The notes under the pieces: model-generated
What the model was told of the DNA's origin: nothing
The model's database searches: none
What the model saw: only the letters and a program-made list of their open reading frames with translations
Position numbers and translations under genes: made by a program
Shown here: positions 26,926 to 40,776 of the stretch, piece after piece
Numbering within the stretch: the first letter of the stretch is position 1
Layout: each line of letters starts with the position of its first letter
Source: an uncultured Gammaproteobacteria bacterium
GTDB taxonomy: Bacteria; Patescibacteriota; Microgenomatia; 0-14-0-10-38-17
NCBI GenBank assembly: GCA_964348895.1
Contig: CAYGEH010000001.1
Location: forward strand, 312,002-376,001
Direction: 5' to 3'
Length of the DNA stretch: 64,000 bases

Positions 26926-27089
26926 CCGCGCTTGTTGCCTTGTAAGCCACTTTTCTCTCCAATCTGGGGTTAGTTTATCGTCTTTGTTGTTCCAAACAGC
27001 TTGCTTATTCTTATTTTTGATTTTGCTTCTATGAAATTAAGCAACAAATCGACGAGGCGGTGTCTTTTGCTTTTGTTGAATATAGAACT

Positions 27090-27179
27090 TGGCGGAGGAG
27101 GTGGGATTCGAACCCACGTGAGCCATACGGCTCGCAAGGTTTTCGAGACCTGCTGATTAAACCGCTCTCACACTCCTCC
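27090..27179 (-). tRNA. tRNA-Ser (anticodon CGA), type II with long variable arm
   Basis: GGAGGAG acceptor, anticodon loop CTCGAAA, long variable arm, GGTTCGAATCC T-loop, CCA encoded. Confidence 0.85.
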
Positions 27180-27215
27180 ATCTTTTTAGAATTCCAAAAC
27201 ACCTAAGCTCTCTTT

Positions 27216-27292
27216 TGGCGTCCCCGGCGTGATTCGAACACGCGGCCTACAGTTCCGCAAACTGTCGCTCTATCCAACTGAGCTACGGGAAC
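27216..27292 (-). tRNA. tRNA-Arg (anticodon GCG read from sequence)
   Basis: GTTCCCG acceptor, D-arm GCTCAGTTGGATAGAGC, anticodon loop TTGCGGA, GTGTTCGAATCAC T-arm, CCA encoded; near-identical backbone to tRNA-Arg(CCG) at 37176. Confidence 0.75.
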
Positions 27293-27339
27293 AAGACAAG
27301 CTAATTATAGCAAAACGGGGCCAAAAAAAGAGATTTTTA

Positions 27340-27906
27340 TTAATTTTTCTTTTCGCCTGAAGCTTCTAGGGGGAAAGTTTTCGCCAACCAAGCAGTGCTT
27401 TTTTCGATAAAGCTTGGCTCTGGTTTGTGGTAAGGCAAGAAGTCTTCCATAATTTTTCTAACTTCTTTGCCGCCTTGCTCGCCTAAGAGCATAATTATTC
27501 TTTTGGGAAAATTAATCGTGGTGTTAACATTGAGAATTTTTTGTCCGTTTTCCTCTTCAATAAAAAAATAATTAAGCATATTCCAAGCATATTTTTGCTC
27601 GCCCCAAACCAAGCCTTGATTTGTAATTTTGTAAGTCGTGTTTTGAGGGGGCTTAGTCGAGAGAATGTAATAAAGAAAGATCAAAGCAAAAATAGTGGCA
27701 ATTAAAAAATATTCTTTAGCAAAAAATAAAATTATTGAAATTAAAAGAGCAATAGAAAGAACGGTAGTCCAAAAATCCTTATTTCGAGGCTTAAAGTTTC
27801 TTTCTGGAGCTTGCCAAGAAAGAAATGTTTTTATTCGATAAGAGGGAATTACCTCTTGCGGAAAAGGAGGAGGCTGGGTAATTTCTTCTCTTCTGTCTTC
27901 AACCAT
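27340..27906 (-). CDS. hypothetical membrane protein (188 aa)
   Basis: proline-rich N-terminus, two TM helices, no homology recognised. Confidence 0.5.
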   Translation of the reverse strand: MVEDRREEITQPPPFPQEVIPSYRIKTFLSWQAPERNFKPRNKDFWTTVLSIALLISIILFFAKEYFLIATIFALIFLYYILSTKPPQNTTYKITNQGLVWGEQKYAWNMLNYFFIEEENGQKILNVNTTINFPKRIIMLLGEQGGKEVRKIMEDFLPYHKPEPSFIEKSTAWLAKTFPLEASGEKKN

Positions 27907-27988
27907 TAGAATGATTGTATATCAGTTAACTTTTTAATTGCAAGTGTTAGGTTAAGTCTGCTGATTTTGGTATAATTTGAGAAGTCAA

Positions 27989-28077
27989 GGAGGAGTCGCT
28001 TAGAGGCCCATAGCACAGGTTTGCTAAACCTGCGAGCCGTATGGCTCACGTGGGTTCGAATCCCACCTCCTCCGCCA
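27989..28077 (+). tRNA. tRNA-Ser (anticodon GCT), type II
   Basis: GGAGGAG acceptor, anticodon loop TTGCTAA, long variable arm; 3' 45 nt identical to tRNA-Ser(CGA); 3' half overlapped by the recombinase ORF end. Confidence 0.85.
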
Positions 28078-29520
28078 GTTAGAAAAAGAAGGGTTTGGCT
28101 CGCCCTCTACGAGGGCTCGCCAGCCGATTTTAGGCGCAAAATTGAATTTTTTGTCTTTCAAAATAAAGTTCGAGCCGACATTTTTTAGAAATTGACGGAT
28201 TTCCGTTTTGTCGCTTTGCGACAAAAGAATTTTGGCTTGGCTACTCTGTAAAATCATTTCTTTCATCGGTTCGAGCCAATTATTTCCCGCTTGTTCAAAA
28301 TCTCTGATTTTCTGCTCAATTTCCAGTTTTTCGTTGAGCAGTTTTTGTTTCTTGGCTTGATATTCTTCAAGCGTCAAAGCCCCGCCAGTAATGTAGAGGT
28401 CTAACAATTTTTCAATTTTCTGCTCGGCTTCCGTTTTTTGCCGGTGGAGATTTTGAACAAAAATTCTACTTTCATTTTTGGCTTGTTTTTTTTCTTTGTC
28501 TAACTCGGCAAGCATATTTTTAGCCCACTTGTACGGCAAAGAAACTTTTTGAATAAAATCTCTCATCTGTTCAACAAGATTTTCCTCTCGCAGATATTTT
28601 TCATTACAAGTTTGCTTTTTCTTGGTGCACCGATAATAGTTATGTCCTTTTTGAGTTTCGGCAGTAATGAAGCAACCGCAAGACCCGCAACGCATTAAAC
28701 CGGAAAAAGCAAACTCGTGCTTTCGTTTCCTCTTTTTCTTGCCCCGGTTATTCATTACTTGTTGAACAGAATCAAAAAGTTTCTTGGAAATAATTGGCTC
28801 GTGGATTCCCTGATAAATTTCACCGTTGAATTTGAAAACGCCGTAGTAAAAAGGATTTTTTAACATTCGCTGGACACAAGAACAGGAAAGAACATTGCCT
28901 TTATAGCTGTCTATTTCAGTATCAGCCAAAAACTGCTTTATGGCCTTTAGCGTATATTCGCCGGTGGCATAAAGTTCAAAACATTTTCTAATTAACGGTG
29001 CTTTTTCTTTGTCAGTATCAATAGCTTTCGTCTTATGATTATTGAGATAGCCAAGCGGCGCAAAGCCAGGCCAAATTCCTTTTCGCAGTTTTTGGCGGTG
29101 TCCTCGTTTGATATTTTCAGAAAGGTTATCAATGTAGTATTTACTTTGGCCAAAGGCAATGTTCATCATGAATTTTCCTTGCGGTGTGCTATCAAACCAA
29201 AATGTCGGGAATTTCAAATCCTTAATCTTTCCTGTGTCCAGCAGGTAAATAATCTTTCCGCCATCAATAGAATTTCTCGCCAATCTGTCTGGATGCCAAG
29301 CCAAAATTCCGCTGGCTTCGCCAGCGCAAATCCGATCAAGCATTTCTCCGAAAATTTTTCGGCCAGGTTCTTTGGCGGTTTGCGCCTCGCATAGCGAGGC
29401 GACGATTTCAAGTTTTTCTTTGGCGGCAAATTCTTTTAATTCAGAAAGCTGGGATTCAATACTTAAAATTTGACGTTCCTCGCTGTCCGTTGATTTTCGG
29501 GTGTAAATAAAATACTTCAT
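28024..29520 (-). CDS. large serine recombinase (resolvase/invertase catalytic domain + recombinase/zinc-ribbon + coiled-coil)
   Basis: N-terminus MKYFIYTRKSTDSEERQ (catalytic Ser motif YxRxST), CxxC...C..C zinc-ribbon region (CGSCGCF...YYRC), long coiled-coil tail; last ~50 codons translate IR-A and the tRNA-Ser 3' half (…WRRRWDSNPREPYGSQV). Confidence 0.85.
   Translation of the reverse strand: MKYFIYTRKSTDSEERQILSIESQLSELKEFAAKEKLEIVASLCEAQTAKEPGRKIFGEMLDRICAGEASGILAWHPDRLARNSIDGGKIIYLLDTGKIKDLKFPTFWFDSTPQGKFMMNIAFGQSKYYIDNLSENIKRGHRQKLRKGIWPGFAPLGYLNNHKTKAIDTDKEKAPLIRKCFELYATGEYTLKAIKQFLADTEIDSYKGNVLSCSCVQRMLKNPFYYGVFKFNGEIYQGIHEPIISKKLFDSVQQVMNNRGKKKRKRKHEFAFSGLMRCGSCGCFITAETQKGHNYYRCTKKKQTCNEKYLREENLVEQMRDFIQKVSLPYKWAKNMLAELDKEKKQAKNESRIFVQNLHRQKTEAEQKIEKLLDLYITGGALTLEEYQAKKQKLLNEKLEIEQKIRDFEQAGNNWLEPMKEMILQSSQAKILLSQSDKTEIRQFLKNVGSNFILKDKKFNFAPKIGWRALVEGEPNPSFSNWRRRWDSNPREPYGSQV
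28072..28158. repeat. IR-A left copy (87 bp), begins inside the tRNA-Ser(GCT) 3' end (CCGCCAGTT...)
   Basis: Reverse complement matches 29578-29664 with 1 mismatch. Confidence 0.8.
28159..28186. repeat. IR-C left copy (28 bp), contiguous with IR-A
   Basis: CAAAATAAAGTTCGAGCCGACATTTTTT; perfect reverse-complement copy at 29793-29820. Confidence 0.75.
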
Positions 29521-29577
29521 AATTCTAAAAGATTAAAATTCAGAAAAGCCCGTTTCTGGCGTTTTGCTTCGCAAAAC

Positions 29578-29664
29578 AAAGACAAAAAATTCAATTTTGC
29601 GTCTAAAATCGGCTGGCGAGCCCTCGTAGAGGGCGAGCCAAACCCTTCTTTTTCTAACTGGCGG
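29578..29664. repeat. IR-A right copy (inverted), 47 bp upstream of recombinase start
   Basis: Reverse complement of 28072-28158 (1 mismatch); preceded by perfect hairpin GTTTTGCTTCGCAAAAC at 29561-29577. Confidence 0.8.
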
Positions 29665-29770
29665 TGTGTATTTGAAAAAATCCGAACTGATTTTGCGACC
29701 GATTGGCTCGGCGGGCGGAATTCCCCCCGAACCCCCTTTCCGCCCGCCTCGCCTTGAAGCGGAAGCGAAA
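29661..29770. repeat. IR-B left copy (110 bp) containing GC-rich hairpin GGCGGGCGGAA...TTCCGCCCGCC
   Basis: Reverse complement matches 30975-31084 with 1 mismatch; overlaps end of IR-A by 4 nt. Confidence 0.8.
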
Positions 29771-29792
29771 AGGCAAACCGCCAAAGAACCTG

Positions 29793-29820
29793 AAAAAATG
29801 TCGGCTCGAACTTTATTTTG
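29793..29820. repeat. IR-C right copy (inverted)
   Basis: Perfect reverse complement of 28159-28186. Confidence 0.75.
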
Positions 29821-29929
29821 GCCAGAAGCGGGCTTTTCGAATTTTTATTGATTAAATCCATTTTATTTGGTAGTATTACATTAGGGATAAAGTTCTTATA
29901 TACTACAATACTATCAAAACTTTATTTAT

Positions 29930-30136
29930 ATGACAAGTGGAGAAATAATCAGCGAAAATATTAAACGATTACGCAGTAAACTTGGCTTAACCCAAGACGA
30001 CTTAGCCAAGAAGGCGGATATTAAATACACAACGCTTATGAAAGTCGAAAGCGGTGCTGTAAATAAGCCAAGCGTTCAAACTATGGCGAAAATCGCCAAA
30101 GCGCTTGGTGTTTCAATAGAAGATTTAATAAAGTAA
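29930..30136 (+). CDS. XRE-family helix-turn-helix transcriptional regulator (68 aa)
   Basis: IKRLRSKLGLTQDDLAKKADIKYTTLMKVESG classic XRE HTH; 9 bp before the next gene. Confidence 0.8.
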   Translation: MTSGEIISENIKRLRSKLGLTQDDLAKKADIKYTTLMKVESGAVNKPSVQTMAKIAKALGVSIEDLIK

Positions 30137-30145
30137 AATAAACTT

Positions 30146-30910
30146 ATGAACAAAAAAATTCTTTGGATAATCACAGTTATAATTATTCTCATCAGCGCGG
30201 GTGTATATTTTGTGTTGAACCAGCAACAATCATCGCCGTCGCAGATGATTACTAATTTTGAGGAGTGCGCCCGAGCTGGTTATCCGGTTGGGGAATCATA
30301 CCCAAGACAATGTTGGACACCCGATGGCGGACATTTTGTAGAAGAAATAAAAATTGAACAAATAAAAGAAAAATATACGTCTGAATTGATGGCTATTCCC
30401 GGCGTGGTCGGCGTTGGCATTGGTGAATGTGAAGGCAATCCTTGTATCAAGGTGTTTTTAGAAAACGATTCATCGGACTTGAAAGCGAAAATACCAGCCC
30501 AACTTGACGGATTCAAGGTAGATATCGAAGTAACCGGACCTATTGAAGCGTTAGGTCAAGTAACCATTGTAAGTATGGCGCCCTTATCCGGCTCTTTAGG
30601 AGAAGGAGTTACTATCTACGGCTCAGGTTTTACTCCAAACAATAACGATATTGCTTTTACTAGTGACAAGATAAAGTTCCGAGGAAGAAATACCGCTTAT
30701 TTAAATGGCATTGTTTCTCCAGATGGCAAAACATTGCGCTTTAATCTTCCGGATAACAATAATGTACTGCTTGGCGCCTGCGCATTCTCGCAAATGAAAG
30801 CAAACGAAGCATGTCCAGATATTGGGATAGAATTACCAACAGGCAGTGTCCAAATTTCCGTTGTAAATAAGAATGGTACAAGCAATAGTGTAACCATTGT
30901 AGTAAGATGA
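30146..30910 (+). CDS. secreted/membrane-anchored protein with conserved Cys-containing N-terminal module and beta-sandwich-like C-terminus
   Basis: N-terminal signal anchor; NFEECARAGYPVGESYPRQCWTPDGGHFVEE shared with the protein at 36548-37057; C-terminal G/T/N-rich beta-strand pattern. Confidence 0.65.
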   Translation: MNKKILWIITVIIILISAGVYFVLNQQQSSPSQMITNFEECARAGYPVGESYPRQCWTPDGGHFVEEIKIEQIKEKYTSELMAIPGVVGVGIGECEGNPCIKVFLENDSSDLKAKIPAQLDGFKVDIEVTGPIEALGQVTIVSMAPLSGSLGEGVTIYGSGFTPNNNDIAFTSDKIKFRGRNTAYLNGIVSPDGKTLRFNLPDNNNVLLGACAFSQMKANEACPDIGIELPTGSVQISVVNKNGTSNSVTIVVR

Positions 30911-30974
30911 TATTAATGTAGTATTACAACGCAATAGTATGCCCGAAGTTATCTCAAAACATCCGGAGATTACA

Positions 30975-31084
30975 CTTTCGCTTCCGCTTCAAGGCGAGGC
31001 GGGCGGAAGGGGGGTTCGGGGGGAATTCCGCCCGCCGAGCCAATCGGTCGCAAAATCAGTTCGGATTTTTTCAAATACACACCG
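30975..31084. repeat. IR-B right copy (inverted)
   Basis: Reverse complement of 29661-29770 (1 mismatch). Confidence 0.8.
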
Positions 31085-31212
31085 CTAAGCCAGAAAATGT
31101 TTTTGTTGGCCTAATGCTTCTTTTGATGATTTAGTGAAAAAAACCATGGCAAATATTAAAGAGGCAAAACCAAAATAAAGAATAAACAAATTGTCTGAAT
31201 AAACAGATTCCC

Positions 31213-31695
31213 TTGCCTTGGAAAAAATTAAATCTATTAAGAACTCAGCCGATAAATAAATCTACCATGCTGTACTTTGCTTACGGATCAAACATGAATC
31301 ACACCCAAATGAATGAAAGATGCCCTGGTAGTCGATTTATTGGTCCTGCCAAATTGAGCAGTCATAAATTCGTTTATGACGGTTATTCTAAAACAAGAAA
31401 GGGTGCCGTTGCAAACATAATTAATAAAAACAATTCTAAAGATGCCGTTTGGGGTGGGTTGTTTAAGATTTCGAAAGACAACAAGAATTCTCTCGACTGT
31501 TATGAAGGCTACCCGAGAGTATATGAAAGGATGGAAGTAACCGTTCAGGACTTAAATGGCAAAATGTTTAATGCGTTAGTGTATTTGCGTAAGGGCGAGA
31601 AGGTCGGAATTCCGAGTGAAAATTATCACAAGACTGTGCTTTGTGGTGCTAGGGATTGCGGGTTGCCACAAGACTATATTGATTCGAATCTTTAA
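31213..31695 (+). CDS. gamma-glutamyl cyclotransferase (AIG2/GGCT-like) family protein
   Basis: YFAYGSNM N-terminal motif and catalytic-region E (YEGYPRVYER); true start is probably the internal Met at 31267 (MLYFAYGSNM). Confidence 0.7.
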   Translation: MPWKKLNLLRTQPINKSTMLYFAYGSNMNHTQMNERCPGSRFIGPAKLSSHKFVYDGYSKTRKGAVANIINKNNSKDAVWGGLFKISKDNKNSLDCYEGYPRVYERMEVTVQDLNGKMFNALVYLRKGEKVGIPSENYHKTVLCGARDCGLPQDYIDSNL

Positions 31696-31809
31696 TGTGA
31701 AACATTTATCTTCACAATAGTTTGGCAGAACACTAACCCTGTGGCTAAAATAACGGCTAAAACCATAAAGAAACTAGATGTTTTTATTGATGTTTTAATG
31801 AAATAGAGA

Positions 31810-32439
31810 ATGAAGAATCAGCCTAAGCTAACCACAGAAATATATGATGAGATAAGCACTGCTTATGTCGCTAAATTTAATAAGCCATCTGAGAATATAG
31901 ACGATTTTCTGAAATTGATTAGAGAGGGGGGTAAAATTTTAGATGCAGGCTGTGGCCCCGGAACAGACGCTTCTTATGTTGCTTCCAAGGGTTTTAATGT
32001 AATCGGCATTGATCTTTCGGAAAAAATGCTTGAAATAGCAAAAAGAAAAAGCCCAGGAATATGTTTTCAAAAAGCTGACATCCGTAGGCTTAATTTTAAA
32101 CCAAATATTTTTGACGGCATTATTGCTTCCTTCTCTCTCATTCATATTTTTAAGAAAGATATTAATAAAACCATTAATAATTTTTATAAGTTGCTAAAAC
32201 CTGGGGGAGTTGTTTATATCGGAATTCAAGAGGGAAAATCACAAGAAATATTTTTAGTCGAACCATTAAAGTCAGACGAAAGAATTTTTCTTAATATTAT
32301 TTCTGTCAAAGAAATAAAAGAAATTCTTATTAGAGCAAGATTTCTTGTTTTAGCTGAATTTTTAAGACCTGCAGAAAATAAAGAAGAATTTGATTTTAAA
32401 AAGTTTATTGTAATAGCAAGAAAGTCCACTTCAAATTAG
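31810..32439 (+). CDS. class I SAM-dependent methyltransferase
   Basis: Motif I ILDAGCGPGTD, motif post-I VIGIDLSEKM, motif II FDGIIASF. Confidence 0.75.
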   Translation: MKNQPKLTTEIYDEISTAYVAKFNKPSENIDDFLKLIREGGKILDAGCGPGTDASYVASKGFNVIGIDLSEKMLEIAKRKSPGICFQKADIRRLNFKPNIFDGIIASFSLIHIFKKDINKTINNFYKLLKPGGVVYIGIQEGKSQEIFLVEPLKSDERIFLNIISVKEIKEILIRARFLVLAEFLRPAENKEEFDFKKFIVIARKSTSN

Positions 32440-32649
32440 AGAAAATTTTATAGAAGCGCTTTGTGTTTCAATAAAAGGTTTAGTAAAAACAATATGGAAA
32501 AACATCTCCGCCAATTTATAAGTGATTTAAGAAATAAATAAAACTGTGTTTGTCGCAATTTCCAAATTTACAAAAAATATTTTAAAATATATAAATATAA
32601 TCACACATAAAATAATTTTATTAGAACAAAATTTTCAATAATAAAACTA

Positions 32650-33411
32650 ATGAATCCGCTAATTATAAAAATATCAACACTGGTGGCCTATGTCGTCATG
32701 GTGGCTGTTAACCATTTGGCGGTAATACTTCCCCTCGGTGGTAGAACCACGGGTACGATATCAAACAATTATCCAAACCTCTTTGCTCCAGCCGGCTATG
32801 CGTTTTCCATCTGGGGTTTGATTTATATTCTTTTGGGTGTTTACGCTGTATATCAATTACGAAGAGAGAAAGATGTATTGGTGGAAAAAATCAATCGTAT
32901 TTTCATCGTAAATACTCTTCTTAATGCTTCATGGATGTTTGCTTGGCACTATGATTTTATCTGGCTCTCTGTCGTTCTCATGATTGGACTGTTAATTACT
33001 CTTATTAAAATTGTGAATATTTTCTCTACACATATTTTTACTCCAAAAGAAAAGTTTCTGGTGCGCCTGCCCTTCAGTGTTTATTTTGGTTGGGTTACTG
33101 TTGCTACAATTGCCAACATTACCGTTTTTCTAGTTTATCTTGGCTGGAATCGATTTGGATTGCCTGAAAATGTTTGGATGGTTATGGTTCTTTTGATCGG
33201 AGCCCTAATTGGTTCGTGGCGAATGTTGCGCGATCGCTATGCTTCTTATGGGCTTGTGCTTGTTTGGGCGTATGGTGCTATTCTTGCTAGACACCTTTCG
33301 ATAAGTGGTTTTAACAGACAATATCCAAGTGTAATTTGGACTGTGGTTTTGTGTCTTTTTATATTTTTAGGAGTAATCACCTTTATAAGCATTAAGAAAA
33401 AGAATAATTAA
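32650..33411 (+). CDS. hypothetical polytopic membrane protein (possibly TspO/MBR-like, uncertain)
   Basis: 253 aa, ~7 hydrophobic helices, Trp-rich (NASWMFAWHY); family assignment not secure. Confidence 0.5.
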   Translation: MNPLIIKISTLVAYVVMVAVNHLAVILPLGGRTTGTISNNYPNLFAPAGYAFSIWGLIYILLGVYAVYQLRREKDVLVEKINRIFIVNTLLNASWMFAWHYDFIWLSVVLMIGLLITLIKIVNIFSTHIFTPKEKFLVRLPFSVYFGWVTVATIANITVFLVYLGWNRFGLPENVWMVMVLLIGALIGSWRMLRDRYASYGLVLVWAYGAILARHLSISGFNRQYPSVIWTVVLCLFIFLGVITFISIKKKNN

Positions 33412-33413
33412 TT

Positions 33414-33812
33414 ATGTTTCTTAAGCTCTGGTTTATCGCCCTGCCAGTTTTTTTTGTTATCGATATGCTTTGGCTTGGGCTAGTGGCTAAGAACTTTTAC
33501 GCTAAACAAATCGGAACACTTTTAAAGTCAAACGTTAACTGGGCGGCGGCGGTTATTTTTTACTTAATTTTTATTACTGGTCTAGTTGTTTTTGTTATTA
33601 ATCCAGCCATGGAAAAGGGATCGTGGACACACGCTCTTCTTTTTGGCGCTTTGTTTGGTTTCGTGTGTTACGCAACTTACGATCTGACAAATTTGGCACT
33701 AACAAAGGGCTGGTCAGTTTTAGTAACTGTTGTTGATTTGGCGTGGGGTGCGACTTTGGCGGCTTTGGTTTCGGTTATAACCTACTTTATCGCCACCAAA
33801 CTAGGGCTGTGA
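33414..33812 (+). CDS. hypothetical 4-TM membrane protein
   Basis: 132 aa, start 3 nt after preceding stop (operon with 32650). Confidence 0.5.
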   Translation: MFLKLWFIALPVFFVIDMLWLGLVAKNFYAKQIGTLLKSNVNWAAAVIFYLIFITGLVVFVINPAMEKGSWTHALLFGALFGFVCYATYDLTNLALTKGWSVLVTVVDLAWGATLAALVSVITYFIATKLGL

Positions 33813-33967
33813 ACTACTTCTTGATCCTTATCTTAATCTTATTTGTATATGTGTTTTTGTGGTTTAGGTTTTTAAAGAGAAAAGAGAACAGCCCGATTAA
33901 CATGATTTGGGGTCTGGGGTTTGTCTTTTTGGTGCGGATGTTTTTTTTGTTTTTTTAAAAAAGTAAT

Positions 33968-34312
33968 ATGCGTATCTGGGATATATCGCCAAAATATTTG
34001 TGCAGGAAACATTTACTCGCCGAACACCGTGAACTTCATGGTTTATGGAACATTTTAACCAAACATGAAGGTAGGGGTGGTTACTCTCGACACCCCGAGA
34101 CCCTGCGTTGGGCTGGAAAAACAAAGGCGCTTTACAAAAGGCACAAAATGCTAACAGAGGAATTTGCAAGACGGGGATATGAGCATCGTTCCCCACTTGA
34201 GGAAAAATTAGCCAAAGGCTTAATTAGTCAAAAAGCGTTTATTAATACCCTCCAAGAACAAAAAACGATTTTAAAAAATAAACCTTGTGATTGCCTGCTT
34301 CGCTTTAAATAA
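33968..34312 (+). CDS. pyrimidine-dimer DNA glycosylase-like protein (T4 endonuclease V-like family), tentative
   Basis: N-terminus MRIWDISPKYLCRKHLLAEHRELHGLW matches the conserved start of bacterial Pyr_excise/DenV-like proteins as recalled. Confidence 0.45.
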   Translation: MRIWDISPKYLCRKHLLAEHRELHGLWNILTKHEGRGGYSRHPETLRWAGKTKALYKRHKMLTEEFARRGYEHRSPLEEKLAKGLISQKAFINTLQEQKTILKNKPCDCLLRFK

Positions 34313-34488
34313 GGCAAGGAGCTGGTAATTAATAAAACTTTATTTGTATTGTGAGTGAAAATATTAAAAATATGCCCATTATTTTTGCTGAAAACTTAGA
34401 TCTAAAGCCAGAAACAAATCAAAGCCTTAAACTCTGACAGAAACATTAAAAATTGGTGTTTGAAGAGAAACTTTAATAAAATAATCAT

Positions 34489-35742
34489 ATGGAGAAACAA
34501 GCACAGACTGGGGAAACTACTTTTAGTTTCGAACAGCAAGGGGTAGCCCCAAGAGAGAGATTGCTAGAAATTAAAAATGAACTTTGGGGAATTAGTAAAA
34601 ACTCATCAAACGAACAGCGCAGCCAATTAATCGACAGAATACCCTCTGCTCTTATTTTTATGGGTGAAACACTAAAACAAGATAATTACTATCTTGAAAC
34701 CCTTAAAATAATAAACTACATGGGAACAGCCTCTTCTGTAGCAGATATCCCTGAGTTAAATCAATTAAGAAATTCATTTGTAGAGCAAAATTTGCAGGTA
34801 ATAATGCAGGGGGCGATAGAAGAAGGCATTAAGAGTGATGGCGACGATAAAAATAGAAGGGTCGCTCTTCGGTGCTTGTCTTTTACTGTTGTAAGCGGAA
34901 CCGAAAAACAGCGAACACATATTTTATCTACAATAGATTCCCACAGATTTGACTTGATTCACAGCCCTGGCGATACAGAAGTGTTTCGGTCTTATTTTGA
35001 AGTCATATTTAAACATGGATCAGTCGAACAGAAGAAAAATGCAGCAGAGCTAGTTTTGTCTTTTTACAATAATAATGAAGATTTTTCCAGAAAAGTTGCT
35101 GGTTTAAACATGATGAGACTTTATTATGACCAATTTTCTGATAAAAGTTTTCCTGCCTCCGATATAATACAATTGGACGATCCAATTTATCAACAGATTA
35201 CAGAAACACTAAAGCAATATATTCCCGACATTGATGATCTTGTCCAGAAAGTTCTTTATGGTGGCCCTGTTAGTAAAAACATTTTTGGTAATCCCGATAA
35301 TGTAGGCACAAGACTGGTAGACAACATGAATGCTGTTTTACATCTTGAACGGCAGAGGTCGGGTATTTGTCAAGTATTACGAAAGGAATTTGGCATCAGA
35401 AACTTCTTTAGATATCCCCCTGAAGTACTCATTGCCCAATATGATAATCGTAATGTTGTGACAGAAATAGGCATCGTAGCAGTAGCCCTCTATGACCACA
35501 ATGGGTATTTTTACCAAGGGTTTGTTCAAAACAAAGTGCTAAATTTATTTGCTCGACTACAAAACGAACAAACACTGGGAAAGAAATATGGCCTTATGGT
35601 TTATGAGATTGAGGATAGTCGCGAACTGGCAAGAGCCATTACTCACAGTCAGAGTAGAAAACTATTGTTTGGCATGATAATCGGTTATGGCGCGTTATGG
35701 CCAAAGAGCTCAGTTGAACTTGACGATTTCTTTTCTTTATAG
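34489..35742 (+). CDS. hypothetical protein (417 aa)
   Basis: long soluble ORF, helical-repeat-like N-half; no homology recognised. Confidence 0.5.
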   Translation: MEKQAQTGETTFSFEQQGVAPRERLLEIKNELWGISKNSSNEQRSQLIDRIPSALIFMGETLKQDNYYLETLKIINYMGTASSVADIPELNQLRNSFVEQNLQVIMQGAIEEGIKSDGDDKNRRVALRCLSFTVVSGTEKQRTHILSTIDSHRFDLIHSPGDTEVFRSYFEVIFKHGSVEQKKNAAELVLSFYNNNEDFSRKVAGLNMMRLYYDQFSDKSFPASDIIQLDDPIYQQITETLKQYIPDIDDLVQKVLYGGPVSKNIFGNPDNVGTRLVDNMNAVLHLERQRSGICQVLRKEFGIRNFFRYPPEVLIAQYDNRNVVTEIGIVAVALYDHNGYFYQGFVQNKVLNLFARLQNEQTLGKKYGLMVYEIEDSRELARAITHSQSRKLLFGMIIGYGALWPKSSVELDDFFSL

Positions 35743-37165: not shown

Positions 37166-37175
37166 CCCTCTCTTT

Positions 37176-37249
37176 GTTCCCGTAGCTCAGCTGGATAGAG
37201 TGACGGTTTCCGGAACCGTAGGTCGCGTGTTCAAATCACGCCGGGAACG
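37176..37249 (+). tRNA. tRNA-Arg (anticodon CCG)
   Basis: GTTCCCG acceptor, anticodon loop TTCCGGA, GTGTTCAAATCAC T-arm; ends 3 nt before the Nudix ATG. Confidence 0.85.
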
Positions 37250-37252
37250 CTT

Positions 37253-37811: not shown

Positions 37812-37903
<92 letters not shown>

Positions 37904-38044
37904 TTAGGAAATGTCTTTGTTCCACAAAGCGGACGCTAGAGGCGAGTTTTTGTTGATTAGGTTCATTTTGTTTGGGAACATAAAAAAATGAAAATAAACA
38001 CCAATTTAATCTTAAGTTGTCAGAATCCTAAGATGTGGCAAGTA

Positions 38045-38235
38045 ATAAAAATACAATTAGGAACAACATCAAGAAATTACGAGTAAAGCTTGGTTTAACG
38101 CAAGACAATTTAGCCAAAAAAATCTGGTGCTAAACACATAACCCTTTCAAAAATTGAAAACGAGGCGTTTACAAAATCGGTCGCACATAATAATATAACA
38201 GTGAAATCTCTAAAACGCTTGGTGTTTTTTAATAG
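38045..38235 (+). pseudogene. decayed copy of the XRE HTH gene (frameshifted, no start codon)
   Basis: Translates ...IRNNIKKLRVKLGLTQDNLAKK then shifts frame to SGAKHITLSKIENEAF...; clear homology to 29930-30136 protein but disrupted. Confidence 0.5.
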
Positions 38236-38279
38236 AAGAATTATTAAAATAGTTTTAATCATCATTTAAAAATAAATTT

Positions 38280-38627
38280 ATGAGGAAAAAAATATCAAAA
38301 TTTTTAAATAGAACTATTTTTCTAGTTGCCAGCGTATTAACAGCCATTTTTTTAAAAGCAGCTCATGCTTTGGCTCAAGAATTTAATCCAAATACAGTAA
38401 TTATTTATGGTCCTCCAGAGCTTATAGCCTGCGGGGGCAATAAATTGTGCTATTCATTATTACTATACTGGTCAAGACTTTCGTGGATATCTGCTATTAT
38501 TGTTTTGCTTGTTTTACTTGCGATACCATTTGGGATTGTTAAGCTCATAACAAAAGTTGTCCGAAGAAAGAAACAAAATCAAAAAATTCAACCACCAAAA
38601 TCAACCGATGGATTACCCAAGCAGTAG
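38280..38627 (+). CDS. small signal-peptide/TM protein with CGGNKLC motif; possible substrate or partner of the downstream radical-SAM enzyme
   Basis: 115 aa; stop TAG immediately followed by the radical-SAM ATG (TAGATG). Confidence 0.45.
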   Translation: MRKKISKFLNRTIFLVASVLTAIFLKAAHALAQEFNPNTVIIYGPPELIACGGNKLCYSLLLYWSRLSWISAIIVLLVLLAIPFGIVKLITKVVRRKKQNQKIQPPKSTDGLPKQ

Positions 38628-39680
38628 ATGTCAAATTATCTTTTGTCGAAAATCAAACTTATTGGTTTTCAAAAGAGCTTTTTATTGTCCTATAAAATAG
38701 GCGTTGTTCCTCCACCAAAGTTTATAATTTGGGATTGCACCAGAAAATGTAATTTGAGCTGCGAACACTGTGGTGCAAAAAAAGAGAAATATTCGACAGA
38801 GCTCACAACTCAACAGACAAAGAATCTCGTTAAAAAACTATCAGACTACAAAGTTAAGTATTTCGTTGTTACAGGTGGAGAGCCATTATTAAGACAAGAC
38901 CTTTTTGAAATTTTTTCTTTTGCAAAAGAAGTTGGACTGAAAACTGGTTTAGCAACGAACGGTTTCTTTATTAACGAAGACAACAGTAAAGTTATCGCTA
39001 AGGTTTTTGATTCTGTCCAGATTAGCTTAGACGGGCCTCAAGAGGTCCACAATAAGATAAGGGGAAATAAAGAGGCTTTTCAAAGGGCTGTTAACGGAGT
39101 AAACTTGCTTCGCAAAAATAAATGTAAGCAAATAACAATATCTTCGGTTATTACCACTTCAAACATTAGGAATTTAAAGAAACTTATAGGAATAGTAAAG
39201 AAATTAGATGTTGATATTTGGAAAATTGTTTCGGTTATGCCAATAGGAAAGGTTGAACAAAATGATAATTTATACTTAAATAGGCAAGAGTTTTTAAAAC
39301 TTTTAAATTTCATAAAAAGGAATAAAAAGAAATTAAGAATTGAGTTTGGGGAAAATCTTGGCTATTTAGAAAAATATGATAAGAAGGTAAGAAGTGAACC
39401 ATTCTTTTGCCCGGTTGGATTTTTGGCTTGTTGTGTTGGCGTTAATGGAAAAATAAGAGGATGTCCCGAGCAGCCGGATATTCCATCTTTTACAGAAGGA
39501 AATATTTTAGAAAGGGATTTTTCTGAAATTTGGGAAAGTGGATTTAAGAAATATCGGGACAGGGAGCTTTTACAAGATGAAACCTGCAGGAAATGTAAGC
39601 TTAAGAATGACTGCAATGGTGGTTGTTGGGTAATGAGATTAAAAGACATTAACTGTTCAGTAAGACGATATTGTTTATAA
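38628..39680 (+). CDS. radical SAM enzyme with C-terminal SPASM-like Cys-rich domain
   Basis: CNLSCEHC (CxxxCxxC) radical-SAM cluster; C-terminal CPVGFLACCVGVNGKIRGC...CRKCKLKNDCNGGCW auxiliary-cluster pattern. Confidence 0.85.
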   Translation: MSNYLLSKIKLIGFQKSFLLSYKIGVVPPPKFIIWDCTRKCNLSCEHCGAKKEKYSTELTTQQTKNLVKKLSDYKVKYFVVTGGEPLLRQDLFEIFSFAKEVGLKTGLATNGFFINEDNSKVIAKVFDSVQISLDGPQEVHNKIRGNKEAFQRAVNGVNLLRKNKCKQITISSVITTSNIRNLKKLIGIVKKLDVDIWKIVSVMPIGKVEQNDNLYLNRQEFLKLLNFIKRNKKKLRIEFGENLGYLEKYDKKVRSEPFFCPVGFLACCVGVNGKIRGCPEQPDIPSFTEGNILERDFSEIWESGFKKYRDRELLQDETCRKCKLKNDCNGGCWVMRLKDINCSVRRYCL

Positions 39681-39728
39681 TAAAAATAATTTACCGCCAA
39701 GGAACAAAGAGAACAAAGAACCAGCCCC

Positions 39729-40523
39729 ATGAATAACTTCTCAAGAAATATAGCAAAAACCGTTGAGGAAAGCGTAGTAATGACAATGGACGGTTCCGAC
39801 AAAGAAATCTTCCCATTTTTACCCTACATACTTCAAGATCTTTGGGAGATTGGTTCAGACCCAGAGGTTATTATCAAATTGATTAAAAAACATTCCTTTA
39901 ATTACAATAACTTAAGGGTTCTTGACTTGGGTTGCGGAAAGGGGGCGGTTTCCATAAAAGTTGCGTGCGAATTTGGTTGTTCCTGCTATGGAATTGACGC
40001 AGTGTCTGAATTTATTTCTGATGCTCAGCAAAAAGCCGTTGAGTATAGCGTAGATCATTTATGTAAATATGAGATAGGAGATATTAGGGAGAAAGTGAAA
40101 GAACTGGGGGTATATGAAATCATAATTCTTGGGTCGATTGGGCCAGTTTTTGGAAATTGCTTTGCGACATTGATGGCCTTGTCAAAATGCTTAAGCGACT
40201 CGGGAATAATAATCATAGATAACGGTTATATTGAAGACAATGTCAGCTATACACATCCGTTATACTCCAAAAAACAAACAATTCTTCAACAAATAAACTC
40301 GGCGGAAATGAAATTAATAGAGAACGACATATTTAATCGCAACAAAATCAAACATTCCAACGATTTTATTTTTCATAATTTGAGAAAAAGGTGTCTGGAG
40401 CTAATTGATAAATATCCAAAAAAAAGAAACTTGTTTGAAGACTATATTAGAAAACAAGCAGAAGAGAATGGTGTGCTTGAAAATAAAATAATATGCACAA
40501 CAATGGTTATAAGAAGAAATTAA
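39729..40523 (+). CDS. class I SAM-dependent methyltransferase
   Basis: Motif I VLDLGCGKGAVS; 264 aa. Confidence 0.7.
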   Translation: MNNFSRNIAKTVEESVVMTMDGSDKEIFPFLPYILQDLWEIGSDPEVIIKLIKKHSFNYNNLRVLDLGCGKGAVSIKVACEFGCSCYGIDAVSEFISDAQQKAVEYSVDHLCKYEIGDIREKVKELGVYEIIILGSIGPVFGNCFATLMALSKCLSDSGIIIIDNGYIEDNVSYTHPLYSKKQTILQQINSAEMKLIENDIFNRNKIKHSNDFIFHNLRKRCLELIDKYPKKRNLFEDYIRKQAEENGVLENKIICTTMVIRRN

Positions 40524-40776
40524 GTAAAAAAGTCAATGTTTAAAATACTTTGGGATGCTTGTTGTTATTAAAGAAGAAATTCTAAATCTTTCTTTTCTTT
40601 TTCTAGCGGGAACGAACAGAAAGGGGGTGGAGAAAGTTGCATTCGCCCTTGATAGATTTTGGGTAAAATCAGTTCAAGTTTTTTTAAAAACATATCATCA
40701 AAAAAACAAAATAACCACTTTTGGCTCATTTTTTTAAAAAATTTATTTTATTCTAATAACAATTTAATTCCTGATA

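Follow-up and report, generated by a model that had tools for sequence, protein, structure and literature searches.

A putative integrative element of a large serine recombinase family at a tRNA-Ser gene, with an apparently intact attP site inverted inside it

Genes and repeats beside tRNA-Ser(GCT)

We analyzed a 64,000-nucleotide (nt) stretch of DNA, referred to as the window, from an uncultured bacterium (assembly GCA_964348895.1, contig CAYGEH010000001.1, positions 312,002 to 376,001). Our subject is a 3-kb region in which a gene for a large serine recombinase (LSR) lies next to tRNA-Ser(GCT) among interleaved inverted repeats (IRs), together with genes for an XRE-family helix-turn-helix (HTH) protein and a membrane-anchored protein. 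An earlier description made from the letters alone, cited below as the sequence-only reading, had reported three inverted-repeat pairs with at most one mismatch each, and a repeat finder and shuffled sequences bore this out. IR-A comprises 28072-28158 and 29578-29664 (87 nt, 99% identity, single mismatch at 29602), IR-B 29661-29770 and 30976-31085 (110 nt, 99%, single mismatch inside the hairpin loop), and IR-C 28159-28186 and 29793-29820 (28 nt, 100%). The length and the one mismatch of IR-B had been given correctly, and only its right arm had been placed one position too low (30975-31084). A 48-nt core of IR-A and a 39-nt core of IR-B each occurred exactly twice in the window, with no occurrence expected from 100 shuffles. 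The three pairs are real and far beyond chance.

Two further inverted pairs were absent from the earlier description. The first (29364-29383 and 29773-29792, 20 nt, perfect) is a piece of the N-terminal coding region of the LSR gene, and the second (29534-29560 and 29821-29847, 27 nt, 85%) encloses the whole intergenic block. Gene calls and Pfam agreed with the sequence-only reading that IR-B encloses the XRE gene and the gene for the membrane-anchored protein, and the GC-rich hairpin noted within IR-B was found as well.

We named the parts in the sense of the LSR gene. Arm a is the final 87 nt of the LSR open reading frame (ORF) before the crossover, patch c the 28 nt directly 5' of a, and arm b the 110 nt after the crossover in the a/b junction. 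Patches y and x are nt 138-157 and nt 83-120 of the LSR gene. The GCCAGAAGCGGGCTTTTC boxes that precede the LSR gene and the XRE gene are called U and u, respectively, and h is a short hairpin that separates U from the internal a arm. With T for the tRNA, F for the far flank, rc() for the reverse complement and slashes for junctions, the + strand of the window reads T / rc(a) rc(c) rc(LSR) rc(U) h a/b y c u XRE cargo rc(b) / F. The features are as follows.

27989-28077, + strand: tRNA-Ser(GCT), the proposed integration target (ARAGORN; Rfam tRNA, 55.9 bits)
28075-31084: putative integrated element, 3 kb, with ends at tRNA/a and b/flank
28072-28074, + strand: crossover region CCG of the putative attL, the last two acceptor-stem bases and the discriminator (three-junction alignments, about 30 loci)
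28075-28077: CCA of tRNA-Ser(GCT), supplied by the element
28024-29520, - strand: LSR ORF, 498 aa, running through arm a into the tRNA in antisense (Pfam)
28072-28158, - strand: arm a at attL (left IR-A), also encoding the last 29 codons before the crossover (..KDKKFNFAPKIGWRALVEGEPNPSFSNWR)
28159-28186, - strand: patch c within the LSR gene (left IR-C), with a T-loop-like GGCTCGAAC motif
29364-29383, - strand: patch y within the LSR gene, with its inverted copy at 29773-29792; co-varies in relatives
29384-29400, - strand: 7-bp perfect hairpin hp (GCCTCGC-TAT-GCGAGGC) within the LSR gene, between patches x and y
29534-29560, - strand: U box (GCCAGAAACGGGCTTTTC..), located 14 nt ahead of the start codon of the LSR gene; kept in relatives, where it co-varies with the u box
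29561-29577: hairpin h (GTTTTGC-TTC-GCAAAAC), between U and the internal attP
29578-29770, + strand: apparently intact internal attP (right IR-A plus left IR-B, a/b), inverted relative to attL and attR
29662-29664: crossover CGG of the internal attP
29710-29748: GC-rich hairpin in b, 11-bp stem
29773-29792, 29793-29820 and 29821-29847, + strand: patch y, patch c (right IR-C) and the u box (repeat finder, relatives)
29848-29929: candidate region for divergent promoters of the XRE and LSR genes; each strand has consensus-like matches, in numbers not above chance
29930-30136, + strand: XRE-family HTH gene (Pfam HTH_3)
30146-30910, + strand: cargo gene; its 254-aa product is membrane-anchored, has an N-terminal module found in many other proteins, and matches IPT/TIG weakly
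30976-31085, - strand: arm b at the putative attR (right IR-B), crossover CCG at 31082-31084
31086-31115, + strand: flank resembling a decayed a arm of an earlier occupant (..CCAGAAAATGTTTTTGTTGGC)

The LSR has the Pfam domains Resolvase (PF00239, E = 1.9e-17, residues 4-149), Recombinase (PF07508) and Zn_ribbon_recom (PF13408). The N-terminal YxRKST motif of the catalytic domain is conserved, with Y6, R8, K9 and S10 invariant in 50 homologues, and in the same set the zinc-ribbon cysteines C278, C281, C298 and C305 are invariant as well. An AlphaFold model (mean pLDDT 69, based on a shallow alignment) placed long helices at residues 330-377 and 384-411, where a coiled coil is expected. By its domains, its catalytic motif and the half-site offset described below, the enzyme belongs to the integrase-type large serine recombinases. 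At least 7376 homologues were found at E <= 1e-20. The nearest solved structures, SPbeta SprA/YokA and the A118 integrase, are distant (PDB E-values 1e-5 to 1e-8), and so are the nearest NCBIfam models, XisF and CcrB. INPHARED and PLSDB contained no close relative among phages and plasmids (best 29% identity), and the relatives in IMG/VR were at most 37% identical; a phage, plasmid or viral origin of the LSR was rejected on these values.

The C-termini of the homologues are alike up to ..GEPxxxFxNWR and then split into classes. About 95 tails read R[GRE][WR]DSNPR.., as a tRNA T-arm does when translated in antisense. In about 16 the tail is [CY]xxxx[IV]RT[FYD]F.., and a few run from c straight into the u box (..GSNFILARSGLF..). 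The + strand frame of the internal attP across the junction of right IR-A and left IR-B (NWR-CVFEKIRTDF..) matches the real LSR tails of two relatives (P0152, P0227). The CCA that the element supplies to the tRNA is, on the opposite strand, the W codon of NWR.

Invariant columns in the LSR alignment end at L454, with only K457, F461, W482 and R483 nearly invariant beyond it, and pLDDT in the AlphaFold model is below 50 from residue 450 onward. Substitutions in arm a showed no excess at third codon positions (only nine sequences). On these three grounds, arm a was ruled out as a conserved protein tail. Compensatory changes preserve the stem of the hairpin within a and at the same time change the encoded peptide (CCCTC..GAGGG versus CCCGC..GCGGG). 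The poor conservation of the tail and the low model confidence suggest that the tail encoded by c and a is mainly a DNA element, not protein, which fits the intact and mobile recombinases, described below, that end at c.

Integration at tRNA genes and the family of relatives

Loci of 80 relatives were retrieved from GTDB genomes. An antisense tRNA overlaps the end of the LSR ORF in 53 of the 61 loci that extend past the gene. The target is always tRNA-Ser, of any anticodon, in the clade with at least 75% identity, and a Trp, Gln, Leu, Val, Arg or Asn tRNA in more distant clades. Alignment of the a/T, internal a/b and F/b junctions from about 30 loci left only CGG/CCG common to all three in the Ser clade, and an equivalent position in the other clades. 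The shared identity at the crossover is thus 3 nt (CGG in the Ser clade), leaving CG or GG as the central dinucleotide. There is no duplication past these 3 nt, and the moving units are bounded by tRNA/a and b/flank, not by terminal inverted repeats (TIRs). The earlier suggestion of an insertion sequence (IS)-like unit with 87-bp TIRs therefore did not hold: the ends are those just named, and right IR-A and left IR-B together form one contiguous site.

In 32 of 34 loci, which represent every target clade, the tRNA has a T-loop-like motif (T[TC][CG]GAAC) at a distance of 12 nt from the crossover, and arm b has it at 17 nt. In serine integrases, the distal (zinc-ribbon) motif of attB sits 5 bp nearer the center than that of attP (Rutherford et al., PMC3783163). 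The two placements match this shift and therefore suggest that arm b is a P-type mimic of the tRNA T-arm and that a/b is a bona fide attP. The offset holds for the b and T-arm halves only; the a and flank halves have no such motif. An attB that is recognizably specific on one side only fits the arbitrary flanks. We infer that the LSR treats the T-arm of the tRNA as a half-site of B type, with arm b as its P-type counterpart.

Judged from these comparisons, 28075-31084 appears to be an integrated member of a large LSR-driven family of small integrative elements that insert at the boundary between discriminator and CCA of tRNA genes, here tRNA-Ser(GCT). Left IR-A would be the attL arm and right IR-B the attR arm, and the internal a/b would be a contiguous, intact, inverted attP directly upstream of the LSR gene. 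The sequence-only reading had proposed a mobile, recombinase-driven module whose repeats are recombination-site material, and the relatives agree with this. The empty site is predicted to read ..CCCACCTCCTCCG joined to CTAAGCCAGAAAATG, and the circle junction, in + orientation, ..CAAATACACACCG joined to CCAGTTAGAAAAAG. Another tRNA gene of the window, tRNA-Ser(tga), is apparently unoccupied and has no encoded CCA.

A search of the relatives for copies of the repeats, as had been proposed earlier, recovered IR-A in 41 of 44 and IR-B in 26 of 28 informative loci. Every target clade, to as low as 55% protein identity, keeps the layout together with its boundaries. The arms are about 99% identical within a locus; between loci, arm a has a median identity of 79%. 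Relatives also have b/rc(x) and b/y junctions, which abut opposite sides of hairpin hp. The stem of hairpin h co-varies, with different stems at the same place in five relatives (L006, L007, L009, L013, L026).

The family spans Patescibacteria, Nitrospirota, Bacteroidota, Omnitrophota, Marinimicrobia, Kiritimatiellia, Gammaproteobacteria and other phyla. LSR genes that are 99.5-99.7% identical lie at different tRNA-Ser genes in a Patescibacteria metagenome-assembled genome (MAG), a Thermodesulfovibrio MAG and the isolate Schleiferia thermophila DSM 21410 (L021, L025 and L026), which indicates very recent transfer between phyla or, for the two MAGs, mis-binning. The cargo between the b arms measures 0.7-5.6 kb and differs among relatives. 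Restriction-modification genes are frequent in it, and ThsB-TIR, SocA/Panacea, GIY-YIG, methyltransferases and others were also found. A divergent XRE homologue is located within 250-450 nt of the LSR gene in 23 of 39 loci, all in the closer clade (at least 65% identity). The N-terminal module of the window's cargo protein (30146-30910) consists of a membrane anchor and about 50-70 further aa. More than 100 proteins share it at 60-85% identity, and their C-terminal parts differ (IPT/TIG, Hint-like PF13403, others). By this comparison, the protein appears to belong to a family of modular surface proteins with shuffled parts.

Assemblers are known to have trouble with inverted repeats, and the contigs of many relatives break at the present ones, so that a palindromic mis-assembly or a chimeric contig, a worry already raised by the sequence-only reading, had to be considered. 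Two other samples contain the 5.6 kb from 27000 to 32600 with 100% identity in independent MEGAHIT k141 assemblies. Since the repeats are shorter than k = 141, these identical assemblies make a mis-assembly unlikely. The exact LSR protein of the window was present on several contigs from different samples, and the same architecture was seen in about 40 relatives from many assemblers, including the isolate S. thermophila DSM 21410. Taken together, we regard an artefact as extremely improbable. The contig of a third sample (L003, ERZ27247794) breaks off at 29601, directly in front of the single mismatch of IR-A (29602). This end fits a branch of the assembly graph caused by a polymorphism or by conversion between the arms, and is taken as a hint and no more.

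Alternative forms and competing explanations

Several relatives are arranged differently. In three tandem arrays (L013, L088, L092), the a arm of one element is joined to the b arm of the next, and the array members come from different clades, each with its own identical arms. In a fourth array (L091), the second cargo module, or the whole element, is reversed, and the b arms are 100% identical. A simple form, without inverted repeats and without an internal attP, has the layout T / rc(a) h U LSR c/u XRE cargo rc(b) / F, with the LSR gene pointing away from the tRNA. It was found in L084-87, L046, P0052, P0141 and P0169. The P0169 recombinase (100% identical in amino acids, 98.6-99.3% in nucleotides) occurs behind tRNA-Ser(cga), behind tRNA-Ser(gct) and behind rc(b) of another element, and the three contexts diverge exactly at CCG, which argues that the simple form is mobile. 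The only attP of this form is the rc(b)/rc(a)-h-U block, the one present as the spare site in the window.

A metagenome scan for a T-arm followed by rc(a) and U within 130 nt returned 46 contigs, about 35 of which are recombinase-less (T / rc(a) h u XRE cargo). Two relatives carry truncated recombinase genes: L112 is a y-y deletion that keeps only codons 1-56, and L120 is another truncation. A survey of 79 LSR gene starts found the standard layout in 44 and a tRNA upstream in 7. The idea that the block is an invertible switch between the U and u boxes requires patch c in sense upstream of the LSR gene, and it was rejected because this arrangement occurred in none of the 79. A circular-looking 4.6-kb contig (L005) was rejected as proof of a circle because of its ambiguity: its internal site contains an N gap, and a tandem array could mimic a circle. 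At positions 77-290 of this contig, a palindromic insertion of about 170 nt lies in the b arm between the half-site and the GC hairpin, and may be a miniature inserted element or a structured segment.

We rank first, and consider probable, the plain reading of these data: an LSR element with two attP sites that has inserted at a tRNA gene, leaves the unused site internal, and has invertible modules. Two inverted attP sites would divide a free circle of this double type into an LSR module and a cargo module. Insertion through the attP at the 3' end of the LSR gene would produce the observed arrangement and leave the other attP inside. Inverted arms would then bracket each module, so that each could flip. 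Once the LSR module had flipped, the patches y, c and u beside the internal attP would be direct repeats of the y, c and U of the gene, and deletions between c and c, y and y, or U and u would yield the simple one-attP form, truncated forms and recombinase-less cargo islands. These three predicted deletions correspond exactly to the simple and the recombinase-less or truncated forms that were found. The spare attP would accordingly be a working site and not debris, and it might serve as a second place for insertion. The interleaved order of the repeats (A-C...A'-B-C'...B'), which had been attributed to successive inversions, is meaningful at least insofar as relatives show an inverted module (L091) and products that need an inverted LSR module.

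Several observations weigh against this two-attP explanation. Canonical serine integrases do not join attP with attL, so that a flip catalyzed by the LSR is an assumption, and the flip could instead come from homologous recombination between the 87-nt arms. Alternative orientations, which the sequence-only reading had proposed to look for, were not found in the source strain, where all five contigs (one protein cluster member) have the same arrangement. Among the relatives there was no intact flipped state, with the LSR gene pointing away from the tRNA and c-a-b-y-c retained, only its deletion derivatives, and no contig was unambiguously a circle containing the two attP sites. About 50 bp are enough for an LSR site, which leaves arms of 80-320 nt at about 99% identity unaccounted for. 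Patches y (20 nt) and c (28 nt) follow the clade-specific variants of their own gene, with 0-1 mismatch in most of 45 loci. Finally, no candidate for a recombination directionality factor (RDF) or excision factor was recognized; minimal relatives carry about 0.7 kb besides the LSR gene.

A more elaborate version is possible, though we doubt it. The spare inverted attP and the patches y, c, u and x might form a built-in rearrangement program, or the arms might fold a single-stranded transfer form into a duplex attP. In the program, the LSR or short-homology recombination guided by the patches would flip the LSR gene against the tRNA. A precise deletion would then remove either the spare site, leaving the active one-attP form downstream of the tRNA and in its orientation, or the entire LSR gene, leaving a fixed cargo island. 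If true, this would give the element dormant and active configurations and make it a self-removing delivery vehicle for defense cargo.

The repeats might also be regulatory, a reading that is unlikely as a full account and is compatible with the two-attP explanation. The 300-nt block u-c-y-b-a-h-U would then be an operator or leader: either the LSR would bind its own copy of attP and repress the divergent promoters, as a resolvase does at res, or a leader RNA would pair with U, y, c and a of its own message. The block does sit exactly between the divergent XRE and LSR genes, with promoter-like hexamers in both directions at 29875-29936, and it folds as a closed domain through the U/u stem (z = -8.2 and -6.5). 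The hairpins h, in a and in b retain pairing through compensatory changes, and the short patches co-vary with their partners, as selection for pairing or for a shared protein would explain. Against this, the segment order is not nested and precludes a single RNA helix system, and the same a/b site is a working attP in the simple-form relatives. Mismatches in arm a show no strand-specific G.U bias (18 versus 17), so that this sign of RNA pairing was discarded; the counts for arm b (4 versus 13) come from too few sites. Promoter and terminator scans returned no more matches than expected by chance. A known RNA family was rejected because Rfam found only the tRNA. A protein gene across the block was rejected too: a 114-aa ORF is called there in some assemblies, its frame is broken in most relatives, and the block is therefore non-coding.

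It is also unlikely, slightly more so, that the internal attP and the patches are a frozen relic of a single ancient inversion-duplication, or of a nested insertion into a second LSR gene, kept alike only by gene conversion and now functionless. The patches would be collinear with the LSR gene in the circular form (u..x [LSR unit] y c), which looks like the trace of a second, shrunken copy of it, and the simple-form elements remain mobile without spare attP and patches. The layout is nevertheless kept in every target clade down to the 55% level with its boundaries, and the opposite block orientation was seen at none of the 79 LSR starts, of which 44 have the layout. Gene conversion is implausible for patches of 20-28 nt. 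Moreover, inverted arms cause loss of the recombinase, and purifying selection would be expected to purge them if they were useless.

The sequence-only reading had proposed, as one possibility, an invertase- or shufflon-like switch of the secreted protein. In such a phase-variation system, which we consider very unlikely, the LSR would flip 28159-29792 and/or 29771-30974 and thereby alter the secreted protein or its own gene. Near-perfect inverted repeats do bracket each module, the cargo module is flipped in L091, and the end of the ERZ27247794 contig right before the IR-A mismatch hints at heterogeneity or arm conversion. Yet the enzyme is a 498-aa integrase-type LSR at a tRNA and not a small invertase, the IR arms are att arms whose identity begins at the crossover, and the cargo is unrelated among relatives. 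Flipped LSR modules are known only as deletion derivatives, and for the source strain no alternative orientation is on record.

Highly improbable, in our estimate, is that the element travels as a single-stranded circle in which a.b pairs with rc(b).rc(a) to form a folded duplex attP, like CTX phage or the attC sites of integrons. The order tRNA/rc(a)-LSR-a.b-cargo-rc(b)/flank is the one expected if such a circle were opened at rc(b)/rc(a), and a double-stranded circle with two attP sites yields the same order. The identical stretch of about 200-470 nt with sharp, conserved ends, the abundance of hairpins, and a mismatch correction in the folded stem that could account for arm identity would all fit. 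However, serine recombinases cut both strands of duplex sites, so that a folded site would leave hairpin-capped chromosome ends, the cargo has no rolling-circle or relaxase gene, and the one-attP simple-form elements move without inverted arms.

Comparison with known systems and further remnants in the window

By mechanism, the element is a serine-integrase integrative element, and it lacks the defining features of an invertase or shufflon, a TIR-bounded IS, or a tyrosine-integrase tRNA island. With the large serine integrases of phages and of integrative and conjugative elements (A118/LI Int, Bxb1, phiC31, SPbeta SprA) it shares the same domains, the two long helices at 330-411, the 5-bp shift of the half-site motif (PMC3783163), and an identity between sites that is limited to the crossover. 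It differs from them in sequence, with at most 29% identity to phage and plasmid LSRs and the weak PDB matches given above, and in its target, because the family uses tRNA 3' ends with only the T-arm half-site of attB specific. It also differs in having an attP arm within the LSR ORF, an extra inverted internal attP, and no recognized RDF.

SCCmec elements and their Ccr recombinases are likewise LSR-driven cassettes stacked in tandem by the 3' end of a conserved gene, and the window enzyme has weak NCBIfam similarity, far below the cut-offs, to CcrB and CcrC. In both systems, excision would apparently proceed without a classical RDF. Unlike the element described here, SCC elements target rlmH rather than a tRNA gene, use two recombinases, and have neither an internal attP nor long inverted repeats that bracket modules. 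Hin, Gin and Cin invertases and the R64 Rci shufflon also have inverted recombination sites that bracket segments, as in the one relative with a flipped module. In contrast to the window family, with its LSR, att arms and variable cargo, they use small invertases of about 190 aa with a C-terminal HTH (a tyrosine recombinase in R64), sites of about 26 bp and fixed switched genes. The yeast 2-micron plasmid encodes FLP and has 599-bp inverted repeats, so that a circle with its own recombinase is split into two unique regions. Elements of the window family differ from it in that they have no replication genes, show no sign of flip-driven amplification, and belong to another recombinase class.

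Dehalococcoides ssrA islands (PMC3146451) and Prochlorococcus tycheposons (bioRxiv 10.1101/2020.12.28.424599) are, by their description, small cargo islands at the 3' ends of tRNA-like genes for which serine recombinases are mentioned; their titles and abstracts contain no internal inverted attP, no T-arm mimicry and no interleaved repeats. Islander-type tRNA islands, as outlined in PMC4383910, have a tyrosine integrase and, at their distal end, a direct repeat formed by the displaced 3' piece of the tRNA, whereas the window has a serine recombinase and only CCG is common to both ends. Pairs of inverted attP sites were found in the literature only as engineered landing sites for cassette exchange. 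In full-text literature searches we found neither this family described, nor an attP inverted inside an element, nor an LSR attP that mimics a T-arm, which is no proof of absence elsewhere. The family is very large, appears to move between bacterial phyla and is apparently undescribed.

Near-identical copies in three phyla would mean current gene flow between phyla, mostly of restriction-modification and defense-like cargo, into tRNA-proximal hot spots. The attP appears to mimic the tRNA T-arm, one of the most conserved sequences in biology, with the textbook offset of +5 bp. This makes the family a natural test bed for how integrases read asymmetric sites, and it might supply integrases whose landing sites already exist in nearly every genome. 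The spare attP, the long identical arms and the co-varying patches of 20-28 nt go beyond current models of serine-integrase elements. As the elements exist in several defined states, directionality control and self-limitation are directly testable.

Other tRNA-proximal stretches of the window resemble the family. A decayed, recombinase-less member lies at 37897-40700 next to tRNA-Ser(gga) (37813-37902). It starts with an rc(a) remnant (CCGCCAGTTAGGAAATGTCTTTGTT, 37897-37921). Next come a stretch that resembles the u box and the XRE promoter, and an XRE pseudogene interrupted by stops (about 38050-38255); a remnant of the rc(b) half-site lies at 40665-40692. Its cargo consists of a 115-aa membrane protein, a radical-SAM-like ORF of 350 aa and a methyltransferase-like ORF of 264 aa.

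The right flank of the element (31086-34500) resembles debris of earlier occupants. The rc(a)-like piece at 31086-31115 differs from the a-end motif of the relatives by two mismatches (0.31 matches expected by chance), and an XRE-start-like piece follows at 31138-31160. Two copies resemble the end of the XRE gene (32454-32487, 88%; 34447-34480, 74%), and the piece at 34334-34364 resembles the sequence upstream of it. An AIG2/GGACT gene and a methyltransferase gene are located between the XRE-like pieces.

On the other side, tRNA-Ser(cga) (27090-27179, - strand) ends in an encoded CCA, followed by CCGCCAAGTTCTATATTCAACAAAAGCAAAAGACACCGCC (27040-27090). This stretch has two CCGCC motifs 38 nt apart, with inner ends weakly similar to the sequences where rc(a) begins and rc(b) ends, and may be a minimal scar of the same family. 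The genes for tRNA-Arg(gcg) (27218-27294) and tRNA-Arg(ccg) (37174-37250) form a 77-nt inverted repeat of 90% identity, 9.9 kb apart. Both adjoin tRNA-Ser genes, on opposite strands, so that two inverted Ser/Arg clusters bracket the island region.

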